A stretch of 64,000 nt of DNA from a virus. Both the position numbers and the translations under genes were made by a program. Under the pieces are notes generated by a model, which was not told where the DNA came from, did not search any database, and saw nothing but the letters and a program-made list of their open reading frames with translations. Below, in pieces: positions 38,365 to 57,555 of the stretch. Location of the stretch: IMG/VR virus record IMGVR_UViG_3300005511_000001; one strand, given 5' to 3'. Every line of letters starts with the position of its first letter. Position 1 is the first letter of the stretch.

Positions 38365-38804
38365 TCGATCAGTCCTTTCGTTCTCAGGTATTGGTGGGTG
38401 CGCTCGACGCCGGCCCGGAAGGCAGCCTCGACGTCATCCTTCGTCATGCCGGCCGGGCGCGGCAGTTGGCCGTCCAGCACCGCGTGGCAGGTACTGCACC
38501 CGAACGCCGCGGCGGTGTCTGGCGCCTTTAAGCCCATGCCTTTGCCGTCGGCCAGGCTGTTGCTGTGGCAGAGTACCGTCGTGGCCGCGTCGCCGTTGCA
38601 TACGCCCGGTAATTGGATGGTGCAGTCTTGGCCGCGCGCAGCCTTTCGGATCGGCGTCATTTTCGGGCCACTGGACTTGATCCGCGTGGCACGCGTCAAG
38701 CCCTTGTGCATTTTGGTCACGTCGCGCTGATCGATGCGCTCGGCGCGGACGAAGCCATTGCATTTCATTTCCCGCTTGCGTGGAGGCATCGGCGAGCGCT
38801 TCAT
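38361..38804 (-). CDS. DUF1364/YbcO-like Zn-finger nuclease
   Basis: ARGQDCTIQLPGVC...TTVLCH...GMG.K..D..AAFGC..CH. Confidence 0.85.
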   Translation of the reverse strand: MKRSPMPPRKREMKCNGFVRAERIDQRDVTKMHKGLTRATRIKSSGPKMTPIRKAARGQDCTIQLPGVCNGDAATTVLCHSNSLADGKGMGLKAPDTAAAFGCSTCHAVLDGQLPRPAGMTKDDVEAAFRAGVERTHQYLRTKGLIE

Positions 38805-38893
38805 ATTGCTGCCCTCGGTTCCGATAGCGAAATCCAATCGAGCTCGCTTCCTAGCCGCATTATTATATTTACAATGTTGAACTGGGGCCGGGG

Positions 38894-39154
38894 ATGGCGC
38901 ACATTGTTCAGGACACCTACCGAGGATGGGAAATCACAATTCGGTGCACTGGTGTGATAACGAATGCAGGCCACCGTTACCGCTACACCGCGGTCGCGAG
39001 TGCCGAGCTTCTGCCGGAAGAAGATCCGGCGGAATGGATCGACTCGCGCATGCAACTCATGAGCACGAGTGGCAGACCATTCTCCAGTGGCAGTGCATGC
39101 GTGGCCGCTCTTCTGGCCGACGCAAAGCAGCTGATCGACGCGCTCAGGAAGTAG
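38894..39154 (+). CDS. Antisense moron, hypothetical protein
   Basis: 86 aa, AT-rich upstream region, opposite to the operon. Confidence 0.7.
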   Translation: MAHIVQDTYRGWEITIRCTGVITNAGHRYRYTAVASAELLPEEDPAEWIDSRMQLMSTSGRPFSSGSACVAALLADAKQLIDALRK

Positions 39155-39201
39155 TCGGCCTCTCGCAAGCGTGGCGCCCCGCAAGAGGGCTGTACGGCGC
39201 A

Positions 39202-39657
39202 TCAAGGCAGCACCTCCAAGACGATCAGGCGCCGTGTTTTGGTGACGCCGCACGCGCGCCACCCGGCTGCCTTGAAGCAGTAGCCCGGGTTGCTGCTCGC
39301 CACTCGGCGCGGATTGACATATGTGTAGAAGCGGGTGCCTGGCCAGCGCTGCCAGCCCAGCATCATCGCCGCGCGGATTAGGGTGCTCGACTGCCCTGCG
39401 CCTTCGTTGCGGAAGATGGCGCAATTCACACCATCCTGCTGGTCCTTGCTAATAAACTTGCGCCAGACGAACAACGCACGAGCGCATGGCGTCAGCAGCA
39501 CCATCTTCTCCCCGGGCCCGGCGACTCGTGGATCGCCACGCGAGGCCGGGTTGCGCGAGTAGTGGCGATCAAACAGCGCACTAGCGGTCCGGTTCCCGTC
39601 ACGAACTGGAAGCCACAGCCCATCAGCGAAGAGGAAAGGTTGTTCGGCGTGGTTCAT
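39202..39657 (-). CDS. Mom-like GNAT-fold DNA modification protein
   Basis: FYTYVNP..V.SSNPGYCFKAAGW..CG resembles the Mom ISYAD...G.IY.A.NW pattern. Confidence 0.6.
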   Translation of the reverse strand: MNHAEQPFLFADGLWLPVRDGNRTASALFDRHYSRNPASRGDPRVAGPGEKMVLLTPCARALFVWRKFISKDQQDGVNCAIFRNEGAGQSSTLIRAAMMLGWQRWPGTRFYTYVNPRRVASSNPGYCFKAAGWRACGVTKTRRLIVLEVLP

Positions 39658-39899
39658 GCTACGATTACCTCCCCTACTTTCAGGAGGTGGCTATGTGGAC
39701 CTGCAAGCGCTGCACAATCAACCTGAAATTCTCCGACTGCCAGCCGGATATCGACGACCTCGGAGTCTACTTTCTCTGCCCTCGTTGCGGTTACCGCAAC
39801 AAATTGGCAAGGGTAGGCCCGCGAGACGGCCCGCTTGATCTTGCGCAAATTGACGAGTAAACAGTTTGCGCCGTTAAGTTTGGATGCTGGCCGGGTCAT
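39654..39899 (-). CDS. Hypothetical protein
   Basis: ATGA-coupled at both ends; 81 aa. Confidence 0.5.
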   Translation of the reverse strand: MTRPASKLNGANCLLVNLRKIKRAVSRAYPCQFVAVTATRAEKVDSEVVDIRLAVGEFQVDCAALAGPHSHLLKVGEVIVA

Positions 39900-40522
39900 G
39901 GGCGGACCTCGCCCACTTTTGCTAGTAACAACTTAGCTTGACGAAAATCTCGCCGGCCAACTGCCCGGCCAATATCTTCGGCAAGAAGGCGCTCAGCGAT
40001 CTCCTTCTCGGCAGCCGCAATAAAGGCCGCCCCTTGCGTGGTCCCCAGCCAGTAGGCAATGTGTTCCACCGTCTCGAAGTCTTCGACAGCGAGTTCTGGC
40101 CGGTAACGCAGGCTGCCGTTGGCACGGCATTCTGGCGGCGCAAGAATGTGCTCTATGGCTCTGTAGCCGCTGTTGACTGCTGACTTCCGGTGGTTCTCGA
40201 CTGCCCACTCAGCGACGAAGGCATCAGCACTGTTCAGCGCCGGCCGACGCCGCGCTTGATTGATAAAACCGCGACCGCAGGCTGTGCCTAACCATTGCAC
40301 GAAGGTGGCAGCGACGGTGGCCATGCGCTGCGTCAGTTCATCGCCGACGTGCAGGATCGCGTGTAGCTCCACGTTCGAATAGTAATCTTCGTAGACTCCG
40401 CCTTGATGCGCCATCAGCTCCGTCCATTTTTCAGTGAAGACTTGTTCGCCGTGATGACCATCGCGGGGCGGATGTATTGGCGCGTGATCGCATTGGCCGA
40501 GATCGCAGAGAAGTTTGGTCAT
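39896..40522 (-). CDS. Hypothetical protein
   Basis: 208 aa, ATGA-coupled. Confidence 0.7.
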   Translation of the reverse strand: MTKLLCDLGQCDHAPIHPPRDGHHGEQVFTEKWTELMAHQGGVYEDYYSNVELHAILHVGDELTQRMATVAATFVQWLGTACGRGFINQARRRPALNSADAFVAEWAVENHRKSAVNSGYRAIEHILAPPECRANGSLRYRPELAVEDFETVEHIAYWLGTTQGAAFIAAAEKEIAERLLAEDIGRAVGRRDFRQAKLLLAKVGEVRP

Positions 40523-40941
40523 AAAACAGCCTCCAACGCATGAGCGATGCCAGAACGCTCAAGGCCGGCAGCACGGCAGCCGTTGCGCGTGGCGTGGAAA
40601 TACTGCGTGCGCAGCAGCTGCTCGCCGGCGCGCGCCAGCCCGGCCGCCACCAGGCGCTCCATGGCGGCGCGGTCCTGCACGTTGCACAGGTAGTGGTTGC
40701 GGAAGCCCCAGTGCGTTTTCGGATGGTGCGCCGTGGCGCCCAGCATGTGGCGGAGCTTGTCGAGGTCGCCTTCGGCCGAGCCGGCCGTCAGGCGGCAGTG
40801 ATCGCACTTGCCTTGCTGCGAAAGCTGTCGCGCAGTGATGGCTTTACCGCAAGGGCAAGGCTTGTGGATCAGCGACGGCGGCGCCGATTCTTTGTTGATG
40901 GCGAGGTGCTGGCGCTCCGCGCGAGCAAGGTCATAGATCAT
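40519..40941 (-). CDS. Hypothetical protein with CxC/CxxC motif
   Basis: 140 aa; CPCG...CDHC; RHMLGA...WGFRNHY. Confidence 0.7.
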   Translation of the reverse strand: MIYDLARAERQHLAINKESAPPSLIHKPCPCGKAITARQLSQQGKCDHCRLTAGSAEGDLDKLRHMLGATAHHPKTHWGFRNHYLCNVQDRAAMERLVAAGLARAGEQLLRTQYFHATRNGCRAAGLERSGIAHALEAVL

Positions 40942-40973
40942 GATATATTTGTCTTTCTAACAATGGAGGCTAC

Positions 40974-41228
40974 ATGGTTGAAGATCCTGATTTCAGAAAC
41001 ATCAAAGCGCTTACCACCGGTGACTTCATGGGTTTTGAGCTTTACGATGCCGGCGAATGGCGTGCGTTCCATATCAGCGGAACAGCCCTGAGGATTATTG
41101 GTGGACCGGGCGCATCCAACGATATGGAGGCCTTCGAGCGAGGCGTAGAGCGCATCAAGGCCGCTGCACTGAGGAGGCCAAGGGGCGGTAACGGACTGGT
41201 TATCCTGAACTCCGACGATTTCGCTTAA
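40974..41228 (+). CDS. Antisense moron, DUF1488-like
   Basis: GGAGG SD; F.IS..AL....AF....RI..AA....I.S.D pattern. Confidence 0.65.
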   Translation: MVEDPDFRNIKALTTGDFMGFELYDAGEWRAFHISGTALRIIGGPGASNDMEAFERGVERIKAAALRRPRGGNGLVILNSDDFA

Positions 41229-41428
41229 TCGCCAGATTGCCGCGCGACGTTTGAAGCTTGGTCGCTTGCCATAATCCCTCACGCTGCCACCAACCCCATC
41301 TCACGCTCGTGCGTGAAGTTGGCGCGGATCAGCGCTTCGGATAGCGGAGAGCAAACAAGGTGTTGGCGCTCCGCGCCAACCAGATCGTAGATCATGTTAC
41401 TATTTTCCCTTTTGGCAATTGGCAGAAA

Positions 41429-42079
41429 ATGATCAAGCGAATACATGCTTGGGCTTGCGCTGGATTCGTTATATCCATCAGCGCACTGTCGCTGATCGGC
41501 GTTCTGCTGCTGATTCGCGCACTTAGCTGCATACTCTGGAGTCAGGAAGCAGCTGGATGGGTGCAAGCAGTTGGTTCGATTGCCGCTATTTTCGTCGCCG
41601 GACAAATCGCATCCTGGCAGGTAAAGAAGCAGTTCGAAGACGCCAGGACGTTGGAGCAGCTTTCCCGCCTTACTTCCGAAATGCGCATGCTCGAAGGCTT
41701 GGAGCAAATCATCGACTTCGCTAACCGTCGGGTTCTCCGAGTGGTACGAGCATTCGAATGGGATCGCGACACCTTTTGCAGCATCGCATCCGGTGAGCGT
41801 CATTTCGACAGGAATATACTGCTCGAAGTCCAGAGCGAAACTGCCGCGATCGCGCTCCATGAAGTCCCTAATGCAAGGGTGATTGCTGCCCTCATTAACC
41901 ACCGAAGCTGCTTGAGGCAACTTCACGACCAACTCGAGCGCGGACTTCAAAGCTACCGAAATCTCGATGCCACTCGCTTTGCACAGCTCTTCAACATGCT
42001 TGACGACGGCCATAAAAAGCTTTGCATGGCCGAAGTTGAGATTACGGAGGCGCTGATCAAACTCAGGACGTCCCAGTAG
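41429..42079 (+). CDS. Antisense moron, 2-TM protein with WVQAVGS motif
   Basis: Two N-terminal TM helices then a helical domain; AT-richer codon usage. Confidence 0.8.
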   Translation: MIKRIHAWACAGFVISISALSLIGVLLLIRALSCILWSQEAAGWVQAVGSIAAIFVAGQIASWQVKKQFEDARTLEQLSRLTSEMRMLEGLEQIIDFANRRVLRVVRAFEWDRDTFCSIASGERHFDRNILLEVQSETAAIALHEVPNARVIAALINHRSCLRQLHDQLERGLQSYRNLDATRFAQLFNMLDDGHKKLCMAEVEITEALIKLRTSQ

Positions 42080-42099
42080 TATGTTCAACCCAACAGCAG

Positions 42100-42636
42100 T
42101 CATATCGCCACCATTCCCATCTCACGCTCGCGCGTGAAGTTGGACATATCTGCCCGGTGGCGCGCGCGAACCTCGGCTGCGAGCGCCGCGTCGCCGGTGA
42201 CCAACAGGCCGGCCGCCGCGACGCGCACCAGCCCCTCATTGAGGGCATACTTGCCCAGCTCGCGCAGTGGCACGTTGATGGCCAGCTTCTTGTGGAGCGG
42301 GTAGTTCTCCAGCCAGCAGCCATACTCCGGCGCCGCGTAGATTCGCACGCTGGCCAGGCCACCTTCGATCGCTTCGACCACGCCCGGCAACATCTGCGTG
42401 TAGGTCTGATCGCTGTCGAGTACAGTCGCCCAGCATGGCATGCTGGTGACCATGCCGACCTCCCAGTAGGCGCGCGCCTCGGCGTCCTCTTCCGCGTCGC
42501 GTGCGACCCAGTAACCAGCGAGGCGCTTGCGCTCCGCCTCCACCAAATCGGGCTTCGCAGCGCGCGTTTTGACGCGGCGGCTGACTGGCTTCGCCTTCAC
42601 GGGCGCGTCGAAGTCGAAGCAGAGTTGGGTGCTCAT
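42100..42636 (-). CDS. Hypothetical protein
   Basis: 178 aa, ATGA-coupled to the MTase. Confidence 0.7.
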   Translation of the reverse strand: MSTQLCFDFDAPVKAKPVSRRVKTRAAKPDLVEAERKRLAGYWVARDAEEDAEARAYWEVGMVTSMPCWATVLDSDQTYTQMLPGVVEAIEGGLASVRIYAAPEYGCWLENYPLHKKLAINVPLRELGKYALNEGLVRVAAAGLLVTGDAALAAEVRARHRADMSNFTREREMGMVAI

Positions 42637-43547
42637 GCGGCCGCCTTCATAGCCAGGATGATGTCGCGTGCCACAGGAGGTGCTACGGCATTGCCCAGCA
42701 TATGCATCGCGTCTTTATGAGAAGCCGGTAAGATCGTGTTTGCCGGGAAGCCCATCGCTGCCCTACTCTCCGGCACGCTCAGCATCCGCATGCGATCGCC
42801 ATCGATGATGGCGTGACGATCGCGGGTCGTGATGGTGCCGATCGGGCGCTGGATTGACCGACCGCCTCGTTCGTTGCCGTAGTAGCTGGAGATGAAGCGA
42901 TCGCCGTGGACTCGACGGCCAGCAGCAATACGCTCCAGCGTCGCCGCCGCGCGTCCTGGTTTCTCGATCGGCTGCCAATTGCCGGCGCCAAAATCGATGA
43001 AGCTGCTGGCAGGTATATGCTGGCGCTTCGGAATGTCGAGCCAGAGCGGGTGCTTTGCACGCACACCAATAATGAACAGGCGGCTACGATGCTGCGGCAC
43101 GCCGTGGTCGGCGGCGTCAACAATCATCGGCGTCATGCTGTAATCCAGCGCCTCCATAGCGGCGCACCACGCCGGGTAAAGCGACCACGACACGAATTCG
43201 GGCACGTTCTCTACGATGAAATATTCAGGCTGGTGGTACTCGGCGGCTGACACGACCGCCCAAGCTGTGGAACGGCTGACGTCATGCTGCGGGTTGCCGT
43301 GCTCTTTACCGCGTGCCTTGCTGTGGCCTTGGCAGCATGGGGAAGCCAGCAGAATGTCATGCGCAGGCACGTCGCGCCAGTTGGTCTGGTGCAGATCCTG
43401 GCAAGCGTGTTCAGCATCCGGATGATTCTGCGCATGGATGGCCACGGCCGCCGGCCAGTGGTTCACGGCCCAAACCACGTCGACACCAGCCATCCGCGCG
43501 CCGGTTGAAAATCCCCCTGCCCCGGCGAACAAGTCGATCGCTTTCAT
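42633..43547 (-). CDS. C5 cytosine DNA methyltransferase (orphan)
   Basis: DLFAGAGG (I), SPCCQGHS (IV), ENVPEF (VI), Q.R.RLF (VIII), GNAV (X). Confidence 0.93.
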   Translation of the reverse strand: MKAIDLFAGAGGFSTGARMAGVDVVWAVNHWPAAVAIHAQNHPDAEHACQDLHQTNWRDVPAHDILLASPCCQGHSKARGKEHGNPQHDVSRSTAWAVVSAAEYHQPEYFIVENVPEFVSWSLYPAWCAAMEALDYSMTPMIVDAADHGVPQHRSRLFIIGVRAKHPLWLDIPKRQHIPASSFIDFGAGNWQPIEKPGRAAATLERIAAGRRVHGDRFISSYYGNERGGRSIQRPIGTITTRDRHAIIDGDRMRMLSVPESRAAMGFPANTILPASHKDAMHMLGNAVAPPVARDIILAMKAAA

Positions 43548-43906
43548 CCGCGCACCTCCGCCAAACTGCCGGGGGCAGCGCCCGGCCGCGCGAAGAGCAG
43601 CGATTCCAACTCGCTCACGCGAAACGGCGTTGGGCCCCAGTTGCTGCTGACCAGGTGGACCGGCTCGTACACGGCATGGCCGTCACAGGTCACGCGCCGG
43701 CCCGGGGCCCAGATCGAGCCGGTACCGGACAGAGGTATGGTTTGATGCACGCGATGCACGCGGCCCTGGCGCTGCAGCACGCGCAGGCCGTCTTCGGTCG
43801 CTTGAATCGACAGGCCGACATGGCCGGCGACGTCGGCGGACGTCACCTGGAGGCGGTCCAGCACCAGCTCGGCCATCTTGTTGAGGGTGTCGGCGGAATA
43901 GGTCAT
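43544..43906 (-). CDS. Winged-HTH-like hypothetical protein
   Basis: VTSADVAGHVGLS....EDGLRVL...GRV. Confidence 0.6.
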   Translation of the reverse strand: MTYSADTLNKMAELVLDRLQVTSADVAGHVGLSIQATEDGLRVLQRQGRVHRVHQTIPLSGTGSIWAPGRRVTCDGHAVYEPVHLVSSNWGPTPFRVSELESLLFARPGAAPGSLAEVRG

Positions 43907-44109
43907 GGCTGCCCGCTCCCGTCCAGATTGTCGGCGGCGCCGCGCAGCTCCTGACGCGCGCGGTACTCAGCGCGCTGGGCGTCACGGTCGGCCTTATTCG
44001 CGAGGTGATCGCGGTCGCGCTGGCGCCAAACGGAAAGTTTGCGCAAGGCCGTCCCCTCCGGCGAGCCAGTCTGTGCTGGCGCCGGTCCTTGTTGTAAAAT
44101 TGTGGACAT
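43903..44109 (-). CDS. Hypothetical protein
   Basis: GAGG SD before ATG 44109; 68 aa. Confidence 0.6.
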   Translation of the reverse strand: MSTILQQGPAPAQTGSPEGTALRKLSVWRQRDRDHLANKADRDAQRAEYRARQELRGAADNLDGSGQP

Positions 44110-44155
44110 GTAGTTCCTCTGGTAGGTGATCTGGCCGCGCCCCACGCGGCCTTTT

Positions 44156-44290
44156 CTATTTCTGCTTTTCTGCCGCCGCTTCGCGTGCCAGGCGCTCGTA
44201 GTGCTCGCGGCGCATGACGTGACCCGGTTCGATCGGCGGCGCCGACGTCGGCTGCTCACTCGGCTTTTGGTTCTGGTGCTGCTGAGCCAT
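44156..44290 (-). CDS. Small hypothetical protein (44 aa)
   Basis: TGATG overlap; MAQQHQNQKPSEQ...EKQK*. Confidence 0.45.
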   Translation of the reverse strand: MAQQHQNQKPSEQPTSAPPIEPGHVMRREHYERLAREAAAEKQK

Positions 44291-44583
44291 CACTTCTTGC
44301 AGTCCTTCTTCTGTTTATCGCACTGCGCTGTGGGTGCGGTGTGCGCGGGTGGCACGAACACTGGAACCGGATAGATTTCCGCAGGGCGCGGCAGCGGCGC
44401 GGCCGGGCTGGTCGCTGCCGGGCGCGCAGGCGTGGTAGCGGCGCGCGCCGGCGCAGTCGGACGACTCACGGGAGCAGCACGGGCCACGGGTACAGAGCGT
44501 GCAGTGACGGTCACAGCCGCAGTCGCGGAGGCTTGTGCCAAAGCGATTACCAGCAGTGCTGCGATCAAGAGGCTTTTCTTCAT
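44290..44583 (-). CDS. Secreted Pro/Ala-rich protein
   Basis: Signal peptide MKKSLLIAALLVIALAQASA; low-complexity body; C-terminal CxxxxxxC. Confidence 0.65.
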   Translation of the reverse strand: MKKSLLIAALLVIALAQASATAAVTVTARSVPVARAAPVSRPTAPARAATTPARPAATSPAAPLPRPAEIYPVPVFVPPAHTAPTAQCDKQKKDCKK

Positions 44584-44629
44584 TTTCGACTTTCAAAGGC
44601 CGCGCGCGACGGGGCGCGGCATCCCGGAT

Positions 44630-45337
44630 TCAGTGGTGCTGCATCTGCGCGGCCAACTGGTGCTTGGCGAACTCGCCAGCTACCCACTCCACGCCCTTAG
44701 TGGTAAAGCGCATGCTATTGAAGGCGTGGTCGTTGTGGCGCGCCACGCCGGCTTTCACAAAGAAGCGCCCGGCGTTGAGGTGCTCTGCGTGTGGCGTCAG
44801 TTCGCCGCCAAGCCGGTAGGCGATCTTGCGGTCGAGCAGGAATTCGCGGAAAGCGTTCTCGTTGGCGCGCAGCACCTTGCACACTTGGCGGAAGCCCATC
44901 GTGCCGCTGGCGTCGACGTAGCGGTCCACGAACTCGATCGCCGGCGCAGCGGCAGCGAGCTGCACTTCCAGCGCCTGCTTGGCCTCGACTTCATCAGCCC
45001 AGGCGCGCGCGGCGGCCGCTGGGTTGGTGAAGTCGGGCAAAGTCAATTTTTGTGTGGTCGCGGCTTCCAGCTCCTGCCAGCGGTCGACCAGGCGCGCGGT
45101 GAATTCCGGCGAGAGCTGAGCGACGATGATGTAGCTGTCGCGCTTGCCAATGTGGTAGACCTGCTCCACCACGCCGTTGCCGGCCTTCTCCCCATCCCCC
45201 ATTGGGGGTTGGGATATCACGCCACGAGCGACCAGCCGGTCGATGCTTTGCTTCACTTTGTCGTGGCGGGACTCGACCAGCTCGGAAATTTCCTTGCTGG
45301 TCATCGTCATCTGGATGTTCGGATCAATCAGGTTCAC
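44630..45337 (-). CDS. ant: Antirepressor (Rha N-terminal plus ANT/KilAC C-terminal)
   Basis: MTSKEISELVESRHDKV, LSPEFTARLVDRWQELE, AAP..EFVD, T.KG..WV. Confidence 0.9.
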   Translation of the reverse strand: MNLIDPNIQMTMTSKEISELVESRHDKVKQSIDRLVARGVISQPPMGDGEKAGNGVVEQVYHIGKRDSYIIVAQLSPEFTARLVDRWQELEAATTQKLTLPDFTNPAAAARAWADEVEAKQALEVQLAAAAPAIEFVDRYVDASGTMGFRQVCKVLRANENAFREFLLDRKIAYRLGGELTPHAEHLNAGRFFVKAGVARHNDHAFNSMRFTTKGVEWVAGEFAKHQLAAQMQHH

Positions 45338-45394
45338 GGTGGCTCCTTTGCGTTATTGCGAATTCGGCCTATCGGTTTACGTTTTCCTAGCTGA

Positions 45395-45673
45395 TCAAAG
45401 ACGGAGTCGCGGCACCGGTGCGCCGCCCAGGCGACCATGGGCAGCTGGGAACAGCGCGCGCACTGGGCCCAGTTTTGGCCGTTCACTGCGACGCGCCGTG
45501 TTGGTACGATTCGCTTGGCTGACGTCGCGGTTGATCAGTACGCGGATGCGAGCGCTGACGGCCACGCCGGCGGCGGCGCACTTGTCGCGGAACGGCAGGA
45601 ACTCGTCGGCGTTCAAGCTGGTCTTAACGATCAGGTCACGCGGGCTGCTGCATTTTTTGAGCTTCAGGTCCAT
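45395..45673 (-). CDS. Small DNA-binding protein (RHH-like)
   Basis: IVKTSLNADEF..F...C...GV.VSARIR.LI. Confidence 0.55.
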   Translation of the reverse strand: MDLKLKKCSSPRDLIVKTSLNADEFLPFRDKCAAAGVAVSARIRVLINRDVSQANRTNTARRSERPKLGPVRALFPAAHGRLGGAPVPRLRL

Positions 45674-45750
45674 GGTGTTTTCCTTTTAAAAGTGAATCAG
45701 GCTTTCGGGTGATACAGGTGATGCTGGCGATACAAATTCAGTGGTGGGCA

Positions 45751-45996
45751 TCAGCCCGGCAGGCCGCAAGCGGAAGCGACGCAGGAGGACGCGATGCAAG
45801 GTGGACGGTCCAGCGCGTGCTCGCCCTGCTTCGCGATCACCTCCAGCAGCGTGGTCTGCTTGTTCAGCTCGGTCAGCAGAGGCTCCTGCAGTGCTACGAG
45901 CACGCCGGCCAGCGCGGACGCCGCAGCCGGTTTGTCTGCCTCGTCAATTTCAAATACGCCCAGCAGCGCGGCGGTCAGCTTCTCGTGGTTGCTCAT
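45751..45996 (-). CDS. Hypothetical protein
   Basis: GAAAGG SD; 81 aa. Confidence 0.55.
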   Translation of the reverse strand: MSNHEKLTAALLGVFEIDEADKPAAASALAGVLVALQEPLLTELNKQTTLLEVIAKQGEHALDRPPCIASSCVASACGLPG

Positions 45997-46007
45997 CAGG
46001 CTTCCTT

Positions 46008-46256
46008 TCAGGTGGTCGTGCTGGAATTTGCCGCAGCCACATCGGTACCAGCCGCAGCGTTAAGCCGGTGCACTGCTGCCTCGGCGCGCTCAGCCACCAC
46101 TACAACTTCTTCCAGCAATTTCTTGGCAGCCTCGACCTTTGAGGTGTCGGTATTGAACTGGATGGTCATCGGAATGATCGTTGGAGCGATCTCCGCTGGC
46201 GCGCGCACATACCCGAAGCGCGCCATCAGCGCGTCGATGCGGTTACGGATGGTCAT
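46008..46256 (-). CDS. Hypothetical protein
   Basis: GGAG SD inside the end of cro; 82 aa. Confidence 0.6.
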   Translation of the reverse strand: MTIRNRIDALMARFGYVRAPAEIAPTIIPMTIQFNTDTSKVEAAKKLLEEVVVVAERAEAAVHRLNAAAGTDVAAANSSTTT

Positions 46257-46488
46257 GGGGTTCTCCGGTGGTGGCCAGCTCGGGCCAGATGTTTTGCCAG
46301 TCGTCTGGGCGAAGGTCTTTGCGGGTGACTTGATTCGCGGTAGCACGCTCGATGGCGATGCAGTGGCGAATCGCAACTGGGCGAATACCCTCAATCCACT
46401 GATGTAGCAGCGCCGGCGACACGCTCACAGATCGCGCGAGGTCTGCTTTCTTCACTTCCGCTTGGGCCAAGTAATTTTTGAGGTTCAT
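46243..46488 (-). CDS. cro: Cro-like repressor (YdaS family)
   Basis: HTH LARSVSVSPALLHQW..G.RP; IERAT...VTRKDLRPDDW..IWPEL; divergent from cI. Confidence 0.9.
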   Translation of the reverse strand: MNLKNYLAQAEVKKADLARSVSVSPALLHQWIEGIRPVAIRHCIAIERATANQVTRKDLRPDDWQNIWPELATTGEPHDHP

Positions 46489-46497
46489 GCAGAAACT

Positions 46498-46558
46498 ATA
46501 GCGCCGCTACATTTTAAAAGCAAGCCCCGCTATAGTTTTTTTTAGATAGCATTGCTAT
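46498..46558. promoter_or_regulatory. OR-type operators (3 x 13 bp)
   Basis: ATAGCGCCGCTAC 46498, CAAGCCCCGCTAT 46521, ATAGCATTGCTAT 46546; consensus TAGC-N3-GCTA. Confidence 0.8.
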
Positions 46559-49211: not shown

Positions 49212-49397
49212 ATGGCAGCAGCACCATTCAAAAAAGGCGCCCCAGTGAAAGCGCGCGCCGCACGCGGCGGCAAGGTCTACACCGGGAAATTCGTCGCCGA
49301 GCGTCCGGCTGGTAAAGGTGTCTTCTACGACGTAGACGTGGGCGAAGAGCACGGCGGCGTCAAGTCGTTCCGTCCATCGCAGGTAACTGCAGCCTGA
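49212..49397 (+). CDS. Small SH3/KOW-like protein
   Basis: GAAAGG SD; FKKGAPV.......G....YDVD...G..KSFRPSQV. Confidence 0.65.
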   Translation: MAAAPFKKGAPVKARAARGGKVYTGKFVAERPAGKGVFYDVDVGEEHGGVKSFRPSQVTAA

Positions 49398-49403
49398 TCA
49401 CCG

Positions 49404-49602
49404 CGCGGCTCGCCGCCAGTAATACCGTCCCGCGCCGGGCAAGCGCGGGTTCAACAGGCGAGGCAGTAGGTTGCAGCTGGTCGAGCCGCGAGGGCAGAGC
49501 CGGCGCCGTACAGACGACACCGCACACGCCTGCTGCCTCCCCTGTTGAAGAAACACCACCGCGACGCCAGCCTGAGTGCGCACAGGCCCATGCCGGACAT
49601 GG
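49404..49602 (+). ncRNA. Candidate structured leader RNA with pseudoknot
   Basis: 21-bp stem 49450-70/49529-49; 9-bp helix 49404-12/49482-90 crossing it; further hairpins. Confidence 0.45.
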
Positions 49603-49641
49603 TTAAAGCCGAACAACAACGAAGTCAACAAGGAGAAGTAC

Positions 49642-49902
49642 ATGAGCGACTTACGCGACACCCTCGACCAAATACTGACGCTGTGCGCGCAGTCGCGCAC
49701 GTACAGCCGCCGCACCCAGACGATTCATGAAGTCGCAATGCGCGGCTTGGGCCTGACTGCGAACCAGCGCGAGGCACGGCACCTGGAGATTCTTGGTCGC
49801 ATCGGCGGAAATCCGCACAAGCAAGCTTATCTCGAGCGCAAGGCGAAGCGCGAAGCCAAGCAGGCTGCACGCGCCGGGGCGCGTGTCGCGGGTGCAGTAT
49901 GA
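49642..49902 (+). CDS. Hypothetical protein
   Basis: AAGGAG SD; 86 aa. Confidence 0.7.
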   Translation: MSDLRDTLDQILTLCAQSRTYSRRTQTIHEVAMRGLGLTANQREARHLEILGRIGGNPHKQAYLERKAKREAKQAARAGARVAGAV

Positions 49903-50204
49903 AGCACCGCATCAGGCCGCTCGGTATGCTGTCCAAGGCAGCTATTGCCACCGCCGCGGCGAATGCCGGCGTGCCGGTCGCAAGCGCCGTCGCACACTTC
50001 GCAGGCGCACGCCCAGTGCCACGCGACGCCACCGCCAAAGAACTGCTCTACGCACACCGCATCATCGGCGTGATGTTGAACGTCATGACGGTTGATCAGA
50101 AACTGACCTGCGCAAAGCAGCTGGAAGCCGAAGGCATCTCGCCCGACGGCATGACCCGTTACCACGAGCGGCTCGCCGCTCTCAAATCAGCAGGTGCCGC
50201 ATGA
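49899..50204 (+). CDS. Hypothetical protein
   Basis: ATGA-coupled; 101 aa. Confidence 0.7.
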   Translation: MKHRIRPLGMLSKAAIATAAANAGVPVASAVAHFAGARPVPRDATAKELLYAHRIIGVMLNVMTVDQKLTCAKQLEAEGISPDGMTRYHERLAALKSAGAA

Positions 50205-50554
50205 ATAACGTCACACACATCACCGCCGGCCGCAGCTCTCGCCTCGCCGTGTTCGCCGCCCTCGCCTTCGCCTACCAAGACTCAGGTCTGACTGAATCCC
50301 TGATGGCTGGCAACCTGGACGCTCCGGAAGCTACGCCGGCCGGCAGCCACGTTAGCCGCTACCAGATCGCCGGCCGCAGCCGCAACAGCGTCGCGCCGCA
50401 GCTTGCCGCGCGCGAGTTTGGCCTTGTCTATAACGTCACCGAGCGCACCGCCGCCGGCGCGCGCAGCTACACCGCGATCGGTGACGCCGCCAAGCTGCAG
50501 GATGCAGCCTACGACGCTGGCGCGATGGGCGTAACCATTGTGGTGCGGCCGTGA
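50201..50554 (+). CDS. Hypothetical protein
   Basis: ATGA-coupled; 117 aa. Confidence 0.7.
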   Translation: MNNVTHITAGRSSRLAVFAALAFAYQDSGLTESLMAGNLDAPEATPAGSHVSRYQIAGRSRNSVAPQLAAREFGLVYNVTERTAAGARSYTAIGDAAKLQDAAYDAGAMGVTIVVRP

Positions 50555-50772
50555 CGCCGGCGCAGAAGGCCCTGGTGCGCATCGCGGCGCTGTGCCGCCG
50601 ACCGAATCACCGGATCACCCGCCAGATTCGCCTGCTGGAGCTCGCGCTGGAAGGCTTGGGCGTGCCGACCGCGTTGCGTGACGAGGAAATCCGCAAGGTG
50701 ATTCAGGAGCGCCGCGACCTCGCGCAGCAGCGCGTCGCAGCAAACGCCGGAGGTCGCCGTGAAGCTGCGTGA
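50551..50772 (+). CDS. Hypothetical protein, paralogue of 49642-49902
   Basis: GTGA-coupled; shared I..LC...E.A..GLG pattern. Confidence 0.65.
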   Translation: MTPAQKALVRIAALCRRPNHRITRQIRLLELALEGLGVPTALRDEEIRKVIQERRDLAQQRVAANAGGRREAA

Positions 50773-50893
50773 CTGGCTGACCATTGCCGCGCTGGGAATG
50801 CTGGTCGGCTCCGCGTACGCCTACCTGCAGCACGCCGACGAAGAGGCGGCCGAGCGCGAGCGCGCGATTTGGACCGCAAAGGTGGATCGATGA
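50759..50893 (+). CDS. Small membrane protein (44 aa)
   Basis: GGAGG SD; MKLRDWLTIAALGMLVGSAYAYL... Confidence 0.5.
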   Translation: MKLRDWLTIAALGMLVGSAYAYLQHADEEAAERERAIWTAKVDR

Positions 50894-51021
50894 GGGCCGC
50901 GCTCGCCGCCTTGGCTAGCACCGCCTTGCGCAACCTGCGCGCCGGCCACCGACCAGAACATGCGCTGCGCCTGGCGCTGCTGAATAACGAAGTCAACAAC
51001 CTGAATCGGAGAATACGATGA
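50890..51021 (+). CDS. Small hypothetical protein (43 aa)
   Basis: ATGA overlaps at both ends. Confidence 0.4.
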   Translation: MRAALAALASTALRNLRAGHRPEHALRLALLNNEVNNLNRRIR

Positions 51022-51953
51022 ACGCAGTAACCCGCGAAGCACATAGCGCGATGCAGATGACAACGGCACCGGCCGACCTGCCCGCGATCACCACCAGCAG
51101 CACCGCTCTGATCCTGGACGTCGCCAGCATGGAGAGCATCCTGCGTCTGGCTGACGTCATGGCGAAAAGCCGGACGACTATCCCGGACCACCTTAAGGGC
51201 AACCCGCCCGACTGCGCCGCAATCATCATGCAGGCGATGCAGTGGAAGATGAATCCGTTCGCCGTGGCCCAGAAGACCCACATCGTGAATGGCGCGTTGG
51301 GCTACGAGGGGCAGTTGGTGAACTCCGCGATTCAGTCGAGCGGCGTCACGGTTGACCGCTTCAATTACGAGTGGTTCGGCCCATGGGAGCGGATCATCGG
51401 CAAGACCAAAGTCGTAAGCGTGCCGGAGCGCGGCAAGAAAGGCGACAAGGATTACCGGAAGGCCTACCAGTTCCACGCCCCGGACTACGACATGGCTGCC
51501 GAGGAAGGCTTGGGCATTCGCATCTGGGCCACCCTGCGCGGCGAGCGTGCACCTCGCGAACTGACGCTCCTGCTGGTACAGGCGAGCGTACGCAACTCGC
51601 CGCTCTGGGCTACCGATCCTCGTCAGCAGCTCGCCTATCTGGCCGTGAAGCGCTGGACTCGCCTCTACGCACCCGACGTCATCTTGGGCGTCTATACGCC
51701 AGATGAGCTGGATGAATCCAGCCGCGAGATTCGCGACATCACCCCACCGCCAGCGCAGGCGGTAATCGACGAACAAGTGCTTTTGCCCGAAGTTAGCGAA
51801 GAGCAGTTCAAGGCCGAAACGCCGAAGTGGCGCCAGATCATCCTGCAGAAGAAGAAAACGCCGGAGCAGCTGATCGCTCAGCTCAGCACCCGCGCCACCT
51901 TCACCGAAGACCAAAAGCTGACGATCCATTCGTGGGCACACGAAAACAACTAA
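51018..51953 (+). CDS. recT: RecT-family ssDNA annealing protein
   Basis: IP.HL.GNP.DC.AI..QAMQW.MNPFAVAQKT...NG.LGYE; RNSPLW..DP.QQL.YLA. Confidence 0.9.
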   Translation: MNAVTREAHSAMQMTTAPADLPAITTSSTALILDVASMESILRLADVMAKSRTTIPDHLKGNPPDCAAIIMQAMQWKMNPFAVAQKTHIVNGALGYEGQLVNSAIQSSGVTVDRFNYEWFGPWERIIGKTKVVSVPERGKKGDKDYRKAYQFHAPDYDMAAEEGLGIRIWATLRGERAPRELTLLLVQASVRNSPLWATDPRQQLAYLAVKRWTRLYAPDVILGVYTPDELDESSREIRDITPPPAQAVIDEQVLLPEVSEEQFKAETPKWRQIILQKKKTPEQLIAQLSTRATFTEDQKLTIHSWAHENN

Positions 51954-51983
51954 TCCGACAACGACAACGAACGGGAAAACATC

Positions 51984-53852
51984 ATGCAACGCGATCCAAA
52001 CCTGCACCATCAAGTTCACGAGCTCGCTCAGGGTAGCGACGACTGGCACGCCTTCCGCGCGCAGCACAACGGCGCCAGCGAGGCGCCAGCCATGCTGGGA
52101 CTGTCCGACAAAGTCACCCGCGACGAGCTGGTGCGTATGAAGGCTACCGGCCTGGCCAAAGAATTTTCCGACTGGGTTCAAGAGAACATCCTCGACCACG
52201 GCCACGAAGTGGAAGCGCTGGCGCGCCCTCTGGCCGAGAAGATCATCGGCGACGACCTGTATCCAGTCACCTGCTCGCTCGGCCGCATCAGCGCCTCGTG
52301 CGACGGCTTGACCATCTGCGACAGCATCGGCTGGGAGCACAAGCAGTGGAACGAACAGCTGGCCACCAGCGTTCGCACCGGCACGGTGCCAGACACCCAC
52401 ATGCCACAGGTCCAGCAGCAGTTGATGGTCACCGGCGCAGAGAAGTGGATGTTCATGGTCTCCGACGGCACCGAGGCCAACATGGTCTGGACCTGGGTAT
52501 ATCCGGATGCCGGTTGGTTCGACCGGATCCGCGCCGGCTGGGAGCAGTTCGACGCCGACGTGGCGAACTACAAACAGGTCGACCACGCCGTGAAGCCCGA
52601 AGCGGCGCCGGCCGCCGCCCTGCCCGCTCTGGTCGTCCAGACCGAAGGCAAGGTTGTCAGCAGCAACCTGATGATCTACCAGAAGGCCGCCGAGAAGTTC
52701 CTGTCCACGATCAAGACCGACTTGCAGGACGACCAAGACTTCGCCGATGCCGAGTACAACGTCAAATTCTGCGGCGAGGCCGAACAGAAGCTGGAACTTG
52801 CAAAGGCGGCCGCGCTGGCGCAGACCTCGACCATCGACGAGGTAATGCGCACGGTCGACCACATCAAAGCTCAGTTCCGCGCCAAGCGCCTGGAACTGGA
52901 AAAGCTGGTCAAAGTGCGCAAGGACCAGATCAAAGAAACCATCCTCAACGAAGGCAAGCGCGAGTACATGGAACACGTCGCAGCACTGGAAGCCGAGATT
53001 GCGCCGATCCGCCTGCAGCTTCAGCAGCCCGACTTCGCCGGTGCCATGAAGAGCCTGCGCACGCTGGCCAGCCTCCACAATGCCGTGAACACCGCACTGG
53101 CCAACGCCAAGGTCGCGGCCAACCAGGCGGCAGCCGACGTGCGCGCCAAGCTGGTCTGGTACAACGCCAACGTGGGCGAACATGCCGGCCTGTTCCGCGA
53201 CCTGCAGCAGATCATCGGCAAGGCCTACGACGACTTCCAGCTGGTGGTGCGCACTCGCATCGCTGACCACGTCCGCGCCGAAGAAGCAAAGCAGCAAGCG
53301 CTGCGCGCTCGGATAGCCGCCGAGGAAAAGGCAAAGGCGGAAGCCGCAGCACGCGCCGATCTGGAACACCAGCAGCGCGAAGCTGCTGAGCGCCAGGCAG
53401 CCGCCGAAAAGGCTGAGCGCGAGCGCGTGGCCACCGAAACGAAGCGCCAACTGGAAGCGCAGGCCGCGCAGATCGCAGCACAGCGCCAAGCCGCACAGTC
53501 CGAGCGCCCGACCACCGCCGCAGCCGCAATTGTGCAAGCCAACGCTCTGGCCGAGCAAGCGCGCCTGGCCGACTTGGCAGACGCGCAGGTTGCAGCCGCT
53601 GAGACACCACCTACCGGCGACCTGTTCGACCAGCCGGGCGCCGTTCCCACCGCACCGCCAGCGCTGCGCCTCGGCCAGATCAACGAACGCATCGCGCCGC
53701 TGGCGATCAGCGCCGACGGTCTGCTTTCGCTGGGTTTCACGCCGGCAGCTACCGACAAGTCGGCGAAGCTGTACCACGAGTCTGACTTCCCGCGCATCTG
53801 CGCTGCGATTCAGCGCCACATCAGCACCATCCATGCCAAGTACGCAGCATAA
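51984..53852 (+). CDS. YqaJ/lambda-exonuclease-family protein with long coiled coil
   Basis: QGSDDW.AFR....GASE, GH..E..AR, ASCDG, WEHK, QVQQQL motifs. Confidence 0.9.
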   Translation: MQRDPNLHHQVHELAQGSDDWHAFRAQHNGASEAPAMLGLSDKVTRDELVRMKATGLAKEFSDWVQENILDHGHEVEALARPLAEKIIGDDLYPVTCSLGRISASCDGLTICDSIGWEHKQWNEQLATSVRTGTVPDTHMPQVQQQLMVTGAEKWMFMVSDGTEANMVWTWVYPDAGWFDRIRAGWEQFDADVANYKQVDHAVKPEAAPAAALPALVVQTEGKVVSSNLMIYQKAAEKFLSTIKTDLQDDQDFADAEYNVKFCGEAEQKLELAKAAALAQTSTIDEVMRTVDHIKAQFRAKRLELEKLVKVRKDQIKETILNEGKREYMEHVAALEAEIAPIRLQLQQPDFAGAMKSLRTLASLHNAVNTALANAKVAANQAAADVRAKLVWYNANVGEHAGLFRDLQQIIGKAYDDFQLVVRTRIADHVRAEEAKQQALRARIAAEEKAKAEAAARADLEHQQREAAERQAAAEKAERERVATETKRQLEAQAAQIAAQRQAAQSERPTTAAAAIVQANALAEQARLADLADAQVAAAETPPTGDLFDQPGAVPTAPPALRLGQINERIAPLAISADGLLSLGFTPAATDKSAKLYHESDFPRICAAIQRHISTIHAKYAA

Positions 53853-53873
53853 CCAGCAACCACGGAGAACACC

Positions 53874-54635
53874 ATGAGCGCCATCCCGACCATCAACATG
53901 CAGAAAGTCGAATCCAGTCAGTTCGCAGCCATCGGCCATGTGCCCGAGCTGAACCTGCTGGCCATCCTGTTTCACCCGAAAAAATCGGGCGAGAGCGATA
54001 TCTACCACTACCAGAACGTCAGCGCCGCAATGTTCGCTGAATTCCTGGGTGCCGAGTCGCTGGGCTCCTTCTTCATCCAGCGCATCAAGAAGTGCGCGGA
54101 CCAGTTCCCGTATGTGAAAGCCGACAAGGCGGCGTTCAATTATGCCGCCGGCGAGCCAGCGCTGAAGCCGGTCAGCCTGTCGGTGCCGGTCGCCGCCGCG
54201 CCGGCGCTAACCAAGGAATTGCTGGCTGTCGCGCTGCATGGCCGCGAGTATCCGTTCGACCTGACCGACGAAGAACAGGCGCAAGCAAAGGCGGCTGGTC
54301 TGGTCGTGATCTTCGGCGCCAGCGATGACCTTATGGAGCTGCGCGGCGCGATCAACGACGAATGCGACTGCGACGGCGGCGGCACTGCGCTGATCGACGC
54401 GAAGGGCCTGCTGCCGGATCGCGACAACATCGAGAGCGACGACGAACTGCGCGATTACCTCGCCCGCCAGCCGCTGGCCCACAAGGTCGATGCGCTGTCG
54501 TGCTCGGAAGGCGACTACACCTGGACCTACCGCACAAGCATCCCGCATGCGACGTTCGACGTCGCCGGCGTCGGCGGCCCGTACTGCCGTGGCATCGTGA
54601 TCAGCGTTGCTGACCTGGGCGGTGCTCCCGAGTGA
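53874..54635 (+). CDS. KTSC-domain fusion protein
   Basis: VESSQ..AIGH......L.I.F....IY.Y.NV....F.EFL.AES.G.FF...IK, plus an acidic C-terminal domain. Confidence 0.8.
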   Translation: MSAIPTINMQKVESSQFAAIGHVPELNLLAILFHPKKSGESDIYHYQNVSAAMFAEFLGAESLGSFFIQRIKKCADQFPYVKADKAAFNYAAGEPALKPVSLSVPVAAAPALTKELLAVALHGREYPFDLTDEEQAQAKAAGLVVIFGASDDLMELRGAINDECDCDGGGTALIDAKGLLPDRDNIESDDELRDYLARQPLAHKVDALSCSEGDYTWTYRTSIPHATFDVAGVGGPYCRGIVISVADLGGAPE

Positions 54636-54919
54636 AAACCTGCCGCGCATGCTTGGCACAACTCCCCGGCCACAACTGCTTGGCGTGCCGACGCAACGGC
54701 CGCGCCAAGTGGCGCCTGGAACACAAGGAAGAGGCAACTGAGCACAACGTCCTGCTGGATTTTACGCGGCGCGCGAAAGCGGCGCTGGTGCGTGCGCTAG
54801 GCGTGCCAGCGTCTCAACTGCCTCGCAACCTCATCATATTGAAGCGAGAGCAACTGGCCAATCGACAAATCTCGCACGAGCTGTCGAGAACGATAAAGGA
54901 ACTTTGTAATGAGTCTTGA
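54632..54919 (+). CDS. Hypothetical protein with CxxC motifs
   Basis: GTGA-coupled; CRAC...CLAC. Confidence 0.55.
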   Translation: MKTCRACLAQLPGHNCLACRRNGRAKWRLEHKEEATEHNVLLDFTRRAKAALVRALGVPASQLPRNLIILKREQLANRQISHELSRTIKELCNES

Positions 54920-55175
54920 AATTAACCAAATAGCCACCTTTGGCGACGCTCGCCGGATGATCCTTGACACTATCGTCGAGCTCCGCAACGGCAGCATGGA
55001 TATCAATCGCGGAATGGCGATTGCAGCCAATATGAAGGTCTTGAACGAAAGCGTTCAGACCGAAATCAACGCCGCAAAGATGGCCCTACAGGCGCATCAG
55101 GCTGGGCATGATTTCGGACGTATCGTCGGCATGGGACAAAAGCAAATCGCCAATAGCGAAGGGCAAATCGCATGA
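54909..55175 (+). CDS. Hypothetical protein
   Basis: AAGGA SD; 88 aa. Confidence 0.65.
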   Translation: MSLEINQIATFGDARRMILDTIVELRNGSMDINRGMAIAANMKVLNESVQTEINAAKMALQAHQAGHDFGRIVGMGQKQIANSEGQIA

Positions 55176-55203
55176 TGCTCACCGCTCAATTGGGAGCACC
55201 GCC

Positions 55204-55665
55204 TTGACCGAAATCGTGCTGATGAAGGTCTCCAACATCCTCGTGCCACACGACGAGGCTGCGGCGGCCTTCATCCAGAAAATGAAAGCCGGCGAGCTGA
55301 CCCACGCCGATTTTAAGAGGGTCAGGAATTACAAGTTTCACAAAAAGTACTTCGCGCTGCTCGACTTCGCTTTCGAGCAGTGGGAGCCCAACGGCGAGGT
55401 GACCTACAAGGGCATGCCGGTGGCGAAGAACAAAGAGCGATTCCGCAAGGACCTGATCATCTTGGCCGGCTTTTACGAGTCCACGGTGAACCTGCGGAGC
55501 GAAGTCCGCCTGGAACCGAAGAGCATCAGCTTCGCTCAGATGGATGAGATCGAGTTCGAGCAGTTGTACAACGCGACCGTGGATGTGGTGCTGCGGCGCA
55601 TTTTGACCAGATACACCAGGCAAGACCTAGACAACGTGATTAACCAGCTGCTGGCCTTTACATGA
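55204..55665 (+). CDS. DUF1367-family protein
   Basis: [20 protein letters not shown]...I.AGFY, SISFA.MD..EF..LY. Confidence 0.85.
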
Positions 55666-55690
55666 GCCGGCGGCACCGAGAAGGGCCGAT

Positions 55691-56896
55691 ATGTTTTTCC
55701 GCAACCTCCAAATCTACCGTCTCCCCGCGCCGTGGGCAATGACCGCCGACGCGCTGGCCAGCATGCTCGCGCCGCAGGCCTTCACTCCGCCGAGCAGCAA
55801 TGAGCTGCTGCGCCAAGGCTGGGACGCGCCGCGCCCGGGCGGCGGACTGGTGCACACCGTGAACAAGCAGATGCTGCTCCTGCTGCGCACGGAGAAAAAG
55901 CTGTTGCCGACCACCGTCATCAACCAGGTGGCGAAGGCGCGCGCCGCCGAAATGGAAGAGGCGCAGGGTTTCGCACCCGGCAAGAAGGCCATGAAGGAAC
56001 TGAAGGAGCGCGTGGCCGACGAACTGCTGCCGCGCGCGTTCAGCATCCAGTCCACCACGCCGGTATGGATCGACCCCGTGCACGGCTGGCTGGTGGTCGA
56101 CGCGGCCAGCCCGGCCAAGGCCGACGAGGCGATCAAACTGCTGCTGAAGGCTGTCGACCGCATGCCACTGGAAAGCCTGCGTGTGCAGCGCTCGCCGGTG
56201 GGCGTGATGACCGACTGGTTGTCCACCGACGAAGCGCCGGCCGGCTTCACGGTCGACCAGGACGCCACGCTGCGCGCCACCGGCGAAAGCAAGGCGCAGG
56301 TGGCCTACAAAAAGCACACGCTGGATCCTGACGACGTGCGCCGCCACATCAAGGCCGGCAAGCAGTGCACGCGCCTGGCCATGACGTGGGACAGCAAGAT
56401 CAGCTTCGTGCTGGACGAGAGTCTGGCCGTGAAGTCGGTCAAGCCACTGGACGTGCTGACCGAGCGCGAAATCACCAGCCGCAACGACGAAGAGCGCTTC
56501 GACGGGGACTTCGCGCTGATGGCCGGCGAACTGGCGAAGTTGCTGGCCGACCTCGTTGAGGCGCTGGGAGGCGAAGCGCTGATGGACGCGCCGGCGCCAA
56601 CCGATTCAGCCAAGGGTGATGAGCCGGTGCGCGAGCAGCGGACCTCGAAATGGGTGGATGGAGTCGGCCATGTGCCGGTCCCGGCCGGCGACGGCAGTGC
56701 CACCGATCCGCTGTACGAGCAGGCCGTGGCCGTGGTGCGCACCAACCAGCGCGCGTCGATCTCGCTGGTGCAGCGCCACCTGAGGATCGGCTATAACCGG
56801 GCAGCGCGGATGCTGGAGGCGATGATCGAAACCGGAATCGCAGCGGAATCTGGCAGTGCTTACGAAGCTGTTGAAGGCAAGGGAGCAACCAATTGA
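55691..56896 (+). CDS. rdgC: RdgC recombination-associated protein fused to FtsK-gamma
   Basis: MFFRNL.IYRL, EKKLLP..VI, LLPRAF, LA.TWD..ISFVL; C-terminal DPLYEQAV...[19 protein letters not shown]. Confidence 0.92.
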
Positions 56897-57555
56897 GAAA
56901 TTTGGTTTTGCACTTCCGCGGCCGCGTCTATCGCTCTAGGCAGCTTACGTTGGATGTATGGTCCAAGATCACTGAGGGCCTTATCTGCTTTTTCGCCCTC
57001 GATTTCGCCCTCAAAGTGTCCTGCAGCGTATCGGCTATTCAAGCTGATGATCGAAAACATTGCATCCAACTCAGCGTAAGTTCTCACAATCTTCGACCGC
57101 AGCGCATCGTCAGAAATGAGTCCAAGGCTAGCGGTGCAGCCGATGTAGACAGCAAATCTTGGCTCCATATCTGGATAAACAACTCGGATAATTTGCTCCC
57201 CTGCTGCCTCACAGTGCCTATCAAACACTTTTTTGACGCGGGTAAGCGCCGACTCGTAGGTCCCCAGCTCGGAGCTAAGAGCCTTCAAGAGATTTTGGAC
57301 TTTCCTCCTCTCTTCAACGAGTGCGAGATCGGAAGCATCCTGTGCCGCCTTGGCTGCGCGGTCCGCATTGTCCGCAATTTGCCAACGGATTCCAATTGCA
57401 GCACCAATGATCGCGCCTATCGATCCGATTGCTTGTATCCATGCAGGCAGGGTGGAATCTTTCTCCGGCCAGATGTAGTAGCACACAAGGCAAAACGCTA
57501 CGCTGGCCATGATCGCCAGCGCAATAGCTAATACGACAAGCATCTTCTGAAGCAT
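56860..57555 (-). CDS. Antisense moron, 2-TM protein with WIQAIGS motif
   Basis: AAGGAG SD; two TM helices; AT-richer. Confidence 0.8.

Follow-up and report, generated by a model that had tools for sequence, protein, structure and literature searches.

Backward accessory genes in prophage operons are spanned by phased, stop-free reading frames that may act as ribosome relays

The viral record IMGVR_UViG_3300005511_000001 was analyzed over a window of 64,000 nucleotides (nt), the whole stretch of DNA considered here, whose numbering is used throughout. The window, which probably stems from a rhizosphere metagenome, represents a DNA prophage carrying terminase, tail, recombinase and methylase genes; its closest relatives are found in Duganella and further Oxalobacteraceae, and a DNA search for near phage relatives of the window found none. 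Loci in relatives used for comparison are numbered L001 to L083. In the early operons of this prophage, four genes (m1, m3, m2 and m4) point backward, and each is spanned, in the same codon register, by an operon-strand open reading frame (ORF). These spanning ORFs (b1 to b4, hereafter bridges) and the genes beneath them are as follows:

38894-39154, plus strand: m1, antisense accessory gene of 86 amino acids (aa), ATG start, G+C content at third codon positions (GC3) 0.66
38801-39202, minus strand: b1, 133 codons, over m1; TGATG start on the stop of the gene at 39202-39657, ATGA end on the YbcO start
40974-41228, plus strand: m3, antisense accessory gene of 84 aa, with a GGAGG Shine-Dalgarno sequence
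40938-41282, minus strand: b3, 114 codons, over m3; GTGA start, ATGA end on the start of a 140-aa gene
41429-42079, plus strand: m2, antisense accessory gene of 216 aa, member of a two-transmembrane-helix (2-TM) family (phrog_33632, E=7e-9; family alignment)
41279-42103, minus strand: b2, 274 codons, over m2; ATGA start on the stop of the gene at 42100-42636, GTGA end
56860-57555, minus strand: m4, antisense accessory gene of 231 aa, distant member of the 2-TM family (shared motif, family alignment)
56893-57531, plus strand: b4, 212 codons, over m4; TTGA start on the rdgC stop, GGAG Shine-Dalgarno sequence

A preliminary description of this DNA, made from its letters alone, had claimed that every antisense accessory gene of the early operons is bridged codon to codon. 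This was upheld in 4/4 cases: all coordinates and the shared register hold, and a scan of these operons gave no further antisense genes. A possible fifth case at 59450-60071 was rejected because this gap contains small same-strand ORFs and no antisense gene. The bridge b4 spans codons 10-227 of the 231 codons of m4, which overlaps rdgC tail to tail by 37 nt (56860-56896).

Sequence evidence identifies all four backward genes as real accessory ('moron') genes: m2 matches phrog_33632; m2, m4, a gene of L005 and one database protein all contain a membrane anchor of two helices and the motif W[VI]QA.GSI (located in the second hydrophobic segment of m2 and m4); and m3 has a GGAGG Shine-Dalgarno sequence and is conserved in L001, whereas protein-family searches, PHROGs included, returned no family match for any bridge. 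The L001 homologue of m3 is 92% identical in protein and 87% over the DNA match spanning the gene, which argues that m3 is the frame under selection. The four genes have a G+C content (GC) of 0.51-0.59 and GC3 of 0.54-0.66, compared with ~0.61 and 0.7-0.87 for the window. Pfam, PHROGs, NCBIfam, PADLOC and the protein atlas gave no function for the cargo genes; m1 had no match in the first four of these, and m4 alone had none in PHROGs. Direct protein searches retrieved only 2 proteins for m2, only the contig of L001 for m3, only the contigs of L002 and L003 for the L002 cargo, and nothing for m1 or the L004 cargo, so the small cargo genes add little statistical power. Scans for consensus promoters and terminators flanking the backward genes gave nothing above shuffled expectation, in spacers of only 20-50 nt.

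The bridges are phased with their operon neighbors. Stop and start codons overlap at both ends of b1, b2 and b3 and at the start of b4, through TGATG at 39204-39200 and ATGA at 38804-38801 (b1), ATGA at 42103-42100 (start of b2), GTGA at 41282-41279 (between b2 and b3), ATGA at 40941-40938 (end of b3) and TTGA at 56893-56896, with GGAG 7 nt upstream (b4). Each of these junctions had been read off in the preliminary description and was found again in the sequence.

Codon choice in the backward genes departs from that of comparable genes in the window. We counted the codons that create stops in the aligned antisense frame (TTA, CTA and TCA) per leucine plus serine (Leu+Ser) codons, using as controls low-GC3 genes that lie in their own transcription units or are co-oriented with their neighbors. 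The four backward genes together contain 2 such codons in 105, compared with 31 in 152 for five other genes with GC3 ≤ 0.62. There are none among the 14 Leu+Ser codons of m1, and none among the 27 Leu and 15 Ser codons of m2, which, in agreement with the earlier account of this gene, does use ATA (four times), GTA (twice) and CTT (seven times). For m4, the TTA reported at codon 9 is present, but it is not the lone antisense stop: a TCA at codon 228 had been missed, and this is where the bridge frame is bounded upstream. These are the only two antisense stops in m4. An open aligned antisense frame occurs in 0/8 other low-GC3 genes and in 13/59 GC-rich genes of the window; the caution that same-register antisense frames are often open in GC-rich genes is therefore true of ordinary genes. 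Resampling the codons of the four genes from the controls gave P = 5e-5 to 5e-4 for m2 and a joint P of 1e-10 to 2e-8. The codon null model proposed as a check thus does not predict the pattern, neither by resampling within the window nor with the family predictor described below, and stop-free antisense frames far exceed chance.

The 2-TM family, which is widespread among prophages, allowed the same count outside the window. An alignment-based scan of viral contigs yielded 71 loci, reduced to 57 representatives at ≤85% identity; in nearly all loci the family gene has opposite-strand neighbors, as called with a simple GC3-based gene-calling heuristic. The stops expected in each gene were predicted from GTA among its Val codons, NCA among its Pro, Thr and Ala codons, and A/(A+G) at two-fold sites. 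Antisense-stop counts were bimodal across the family:

Open frame (0 stops): 31 representatives, 204 stops expected, 0 observed
One or two stops: 8 representatives, 44.5 stops expected, 13 observed
Broken frame (at least 3 stops): 18 representatives, 178 stops expected, 150 observed

The closeness of 150 observed to 178 expected stops in the broken group indicates that the predictor is calibrated. Open members range in GC3 from 0.41 to 0.81, and the frames of L040 and L075 were verified by eye. Where one or two stops are present, they fall mainly in the first 25 codons, as in m4. Phasing accompanies openness: among members with a callable upstream neighbor, the upstream stop is in NTGA phase in 13/14 open members (ATGA seven times, GTGA three times, TTGA once) and in 2/8 broken ones. 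At the other end, 26 of 28 open members have TGA as their bridge stop, which an ATG overlaps in 16 cases and a GTG in 6.

Openness is retained while the encoded peptide drifts. Between the open members L031 and L067, differences at sense codon positions 1, 2 and 3 number 46, 37 and 114, and between L011 and L042 they number 70, 46 and 115. The antisense peptide differs 1.5-2 times more than the sense protein in these pairs (122 versus 61, and 135 versus 83 amino-acid differences), and despite this divergence no new stop has appeared in the compared open pairs. Open and broken states form clusters on the family tree yet are interspersed; the tree requires 8 changes, at least 3 of them forced, and the open state is kept over branches of more than one change per site.

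The genes surrounding the bridges belong to two operons:

35355-44259, minus strand: leftward early operon of 14 ORFs chained by overlaps (from ORF coordinates), containing b1, b2 and b3
42633-43547, minus strand: C5 methylase (Pfam)
40519-40941, minus strand: 140-aa gene, 3' of the cassette slot (homologues 50-83% identical in L001-L005 and L077-L081)
38361-38804, minus strand: YbcO (Pfam)
35355-38051, minus strand: helicase/N6-N4 methylase (Pfam)
55691-56896, plus strand: RdgC + FtsK-gamma fusion, upstream neighbor of b4 (Pfam RdgC, E=1.6e-107; FtsK_gamma, E=5e-19)
57588-58439, plus strand: DUF5131 (Gp37/Gp68), downstream neighbor of b4, with its own GGAG (Pfam, E=3.7e-86)

Overlaps in the leftward operon are mostly 4 nt, with one junction of 1 nt and one of 35 nt. 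The minus-strand chain described earlier as running from 43547 to 38361 is indeed unbroken, and its true extent is larger, from 44259 to 35355. Among the gene labels first proposed, DUF1364 is the Pfam family YbcO and rdgC is confirmed by its Pfam match, whereas 'Mom' for the gene at 39202-39657 (minus strand) finds no support in Pfam or NCBIfam. The rightward operon consists of the RdgC-FtsKgamma fusion and DUF5131. No Shine-Dalgarno sequence lies upstream of the 140-aa gene, which therefore probably relies on coupling; without a bridge, this gene would lie 0.3-0.7 kb from any translated upstream ORF.

Upstream of the 140-aa gene, between it and the end of the C5 methyltransferase (…NF.HEREMG.VAA, stop), is a slot that holds at least eight different cassettes in relatives. 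In eight of eight cassettes the bridge starts on the upstream stop in frame with the cargo, where 1/3 would be expected. At their downstream end, bridges terminate in ATGA at six loci, which represent five different cassettes, continue in frame into the next gene in two cases (L081, and b2 by way of a chimeric remnant), and stop 23 nt short of the next gene in L004. The slot of L082 is empty (129 nt). Non-aligned bridges also occur: in L079 (2553-3011), one starts with TTGA on the upstream stop and covers a 131-aa backward gene, and in a second cassette of L002 (7646-7993), one with GTGA and ATGA ends covers a backward gene of ~103 aa; in the latter bridge GC is highest at the second codon position (GC2), which is atypical of coding sequence. 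Across L001-L005 and L077-L082 the slot is an exchange hot spot in which unrelated cargo ORFs adjoin a conserved left flank, with a pattern as if the ORF alone had been swapped.

The window itself carries two tandem cassettes, with a short ORF segment between them through which b2 continues in frame:

41279-41395, minus strand: chimeric remnant of 38 codons, in which the first 13 codons of a 140-aa gene copy are fused in frame to the 25 C-terminal codons of a C5 methyltransferase

Methyltransferase C-termini matching the remnant are present in L001, L002 and L077. Direct repeats at 41286-41322/42107-42143 (92%) and 40904-40945/41358-41399 (83%) correspond to the duplicated junction, methyltransferase C-end on one side and 140-aa gene start on the other. 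By its composition, the remnant is the seam joining the two cassettes. The 178-aa gene at 42100-42636 has only its last ~13 codons in common with the methyltransferases of relatives. The right flank of the slot (~30 nt, including the Shine-Dalgarno sequence of the cargo) is conserved across several different cargos. Because of this flank and the seamed tandem arrangement, the phased ends seem to move with the cassette, and cassettes with conserved, pre-phased flanks seem to recombine as units in this phage lineage. A survey of antisense accessory genes elsewhere had been suggested as a check; phased bridges were found in most of them, namely 31-39 of the 57 family representatives (about two thirds) and all eight slot cassettes.

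We hypothesize that selection maintains a translated, non-coding relay ORF over each backward gene, a reading to which we assign a probability of about 0.7; the sequences themselves show the open frames, the purge of codons, the phasing and the unconserved peptide, whereas translation of the bridges and the benefit drawn from it are what we infer. Just as probably, going by the patterns of substitution and phase, selection acts on openness and on phasing with the neighbors and not on the encoded peptide. The operon-strand frame would be held open by purifying selection that removes TTA, CTA and TCA from the accessory gene. Ribosomes ending the upstream operon gene would re-initiate at the overlapping NTGA, read through the antisense strand of the backward gene, and then stop on the ATGA, continue in frame into the next gene, or end shortly before its start. 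Translational coupling would thereby be preserved, and no long ribosome-free RNA would be exposed to Rho or to nucleases; the relay probably prevents polarity. Use of the codon-aligned register is expected, since in no other antisense frame can synonymous changes remove every stop (PMC6884476).

Several observations weigh against this reading. The end of b4 is uncoupled, with a 57-nt gap before DUF5131, and a C-rich, G-poor (rut-like) composition was not distinctive in the operon-strand RNA over the bridges. L001, with the same 84-aa cargo as m3, has a broken and unphased bridge. Eighteen of the 57 family representatives are embedded backward with 3-15 antisense stops and have no bridge in any frame; they include gp50 of the Burkholderia phage phi1026b (L083, 37901-38527), which has 6 antisense stops and lies backward in a leftward operon whose gaps measure 20-50 nt. 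A bridge is thus no strict requirement. Tight coupling of the flanking operons is more frequent around open (39% of junctions) than around broken (17%) members as a trend only (p=0.053), with genes called by the crude GC3-based heuristic. Conversely, the gene of L050 (2875-3597) has same-strand neighbors, yet its 265-codon antisense frame is fully open, and this open frame without an opposing operon is unexplained by the relay model. The earlier proposal that insertions are kept because ribosomes can run across them is thus supported by the codon null and the homologue survey, but not in its universal 'only if' form, as a third of the family is unbridged. We lean slightly towards a broader rule for temperate phages, in which a backward gene in a tightly coupled operon would be tolerated only if its antisense strand is 'ambigrammatic', yielding translated ORFs selected for openness and phase without a functional protein, with pre-phased cassettes in circulation.

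The alternative that survives best, though we consider it unlikely, accepts translation of the bridges and places its benefit elsewhere than in protection from Rho: in ribosome hand-over to genes without Shine-Dalgarno sequences, or in shielding the operon RNA against nucleases or against base pairing with the transcript of the accessory gene. Exact ATGA or GTGA ends in 22 of 28 bridges and the 140-aa gene without a Shine-Dalgarno sequence speak for hand-over, and the lack of rut-like composition speaks for a benefit other than Rho protection. Against hand-over, b4, the L004 bridge and the members with stops in the first 25 codons end before the next start, and the next gene has its own Shine-Dalgarno sequence, so covering of the RNA fits better than strict re-initiation. 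Hand-over and RNA covering are compatible benefits.

Somewhat less probable still is that the operon-strand ORFs encode functional proteins, forming true antisense overlapping gene pairs. This possibility, raised in the preliminary description, draws on the length of the ORFs, their start signals and operon-like junctions, and on the L050 frame that is open outside an operon context. It is disfavored because changes concentrate at the third sense position, equivalent to position 1 of the antisense codon, and because the antisense peptide diverges faster; a test for purifying selection on the antisense amino-acid sequence gave no sign of it. Moreover, no bridge has a family match, bridges lie over unrelated cargo genes alike, the ORF is missing in one third of the family, and GC by codon position is unlike that of coding sequence (GC2 highest in L002 7646-7993).

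We regard as very improbable that TTA, CTA and TCA are avoided for the cargo's own translation, as rare codons or tRNAs in GC-rich hosts, with the open frame as a by-product. These codons are among the rarest in the ordinary genes of the window, but other low-GC3 prophage genes use them for 17-23% of Leu+Ser, and the backward genes use GTA, ATA and NCA freely, with a predictor calibrated on broken members. Host GC ranges overlap between open and broken members, and junction phasing would be left unexplained. Weakest of all is the explanation by chance shadow ORFs of GC-rich DNA, which can point to the open antisense frames of ordinary GC-rich genes, to a mechanical ORF definition that takes the first start after a stop, and to the NTGA look produced by any A, G or T before TGA, but founders on the low GC3 and joint P of the four genes, on 204 expected stops against none in 31 family members, and on a frame phase of 13/14 and 8/8 where 1/3 is expected.

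Two further features of the window were recorded. At 50703-54008 (minus strand), a 1101-codon ORF keeps to one frame, antisense and codon-aligned, over three successive rightward genes: 51018-51953 (311 codons) and 51984-53852 (622 codons), both with zero TTA, CTA or TCA, and the beginning of 53874-54635. With GC3 of ~0.8 in this region, it may be a shadow ORF, though an unusually long one. A low-GC island (GC 0.53) at 28000-32300 separates the late genes from the early region; it contains a serine recombinase gene of 512 aa and a gene of 355 aa and unassigned function.

These results suggest a little-described rule of phage genome design; our search of the literature on bridge ORFs over antisense phage genes, incomplete in its coverage, found no description of them. 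If the rule is true, the gain of defence, exclusion and conversion genes by phages carries an extra constraint at the synonymous sites of the cargo and in spacer lengths. Hundreds of long 'hypothetical' prophage ORFs may be frame-only relays, over which gene callers can choose the wrong strand. The combination of a stop purge in the aligned frame with NTGA/ATGA phasing is a computable signature that would mark backward genes read through by an operon. The bridges also offer a natural system for asking how much untranslated RNA bacterial operons tolerate, and an engineering rule for inserting backward payloads into phage operons without polar effects.

The backward genes can be compared with several known systems. 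Juhala, Hendrix and colleagues are said to have described morons in 2000 as additional genes with a deviant composition, located between two genes that are direct neighbors in related phages. Classical morons have their own promoter and terminator and are mostly oriented with the operon. The cargo genes described here share the deviant composition and the slot filled differently in relatives; unlike classical morons, they face backward and an operon-strand ORF overlies them, and consensus scans gave no flanking terminators above chance. Long, mostly codon-aligned antisense ORFs are likewise a feature of shadow ORFs and of proposed bacterial antisense genes (bioRxiv 10.1101/2020.11.18.388249). 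In contrast to shadow ORFs, which follow from GC3 bias, the bridges are open at GC3 0.41-0.66 against the gene's own codon habits, are phased, and have an unconserved peptide. Their junction types and presumed benefit are those of textbook ATGA stop-start coupling and Rho-dependent polarity (reviewed in PMC12360218), whereas the coupled ORF here is apparently productless and seems just to carry ribosomes over an obstacle.

In Culex narnavirus 1 and its relatives, avoidance of UUA, CUA and UCA within a conserved forward gene leaves a codon-aligned, stop-free reverse ORF that is selected in a lineage-dependent manner and whose peptide is argued to be non-functional (PMC6884476, PMC8316113, PMC8155312). 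The bridges resemble these ambigrammatic viruses in having an aligned stop-free reverse ORF that appears to be kept by selection, with some lineages lacking it. Narnaviruses are eukaryotic RNA viruses with one gene per segment and no operon, whereas here, in a DNA phage, the open frame is the sense strand of an operon, has 4-nt overlaps with its neighbors and lies over a foreign backward gene; the resemblance is one of principle only. As far as PMC10111431 summarizes it, the eta gene of the phage-plasmid P4, nested with kil, is coupled to its upstream gene, and its translation prevents transcription termination (Forti et al. 1999, as cited there). The same source describes eta as the gene of a Bro-network protein whose truncated form, Kil, kills cells, and as holding an internal promoter and the CI and seqA RNA sites. 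Set beside that account, the bridges differ in having no conserved peptide and in lying over protein genes of the opposite strand; the likeness drawn here is one of described behavior. In both cases an ORF is coupled to the gene upstream, and in P4, as described, its translation lets transcription reach the downstream genes, so that eta may serve by analogy as a precedent for the proposed relay.

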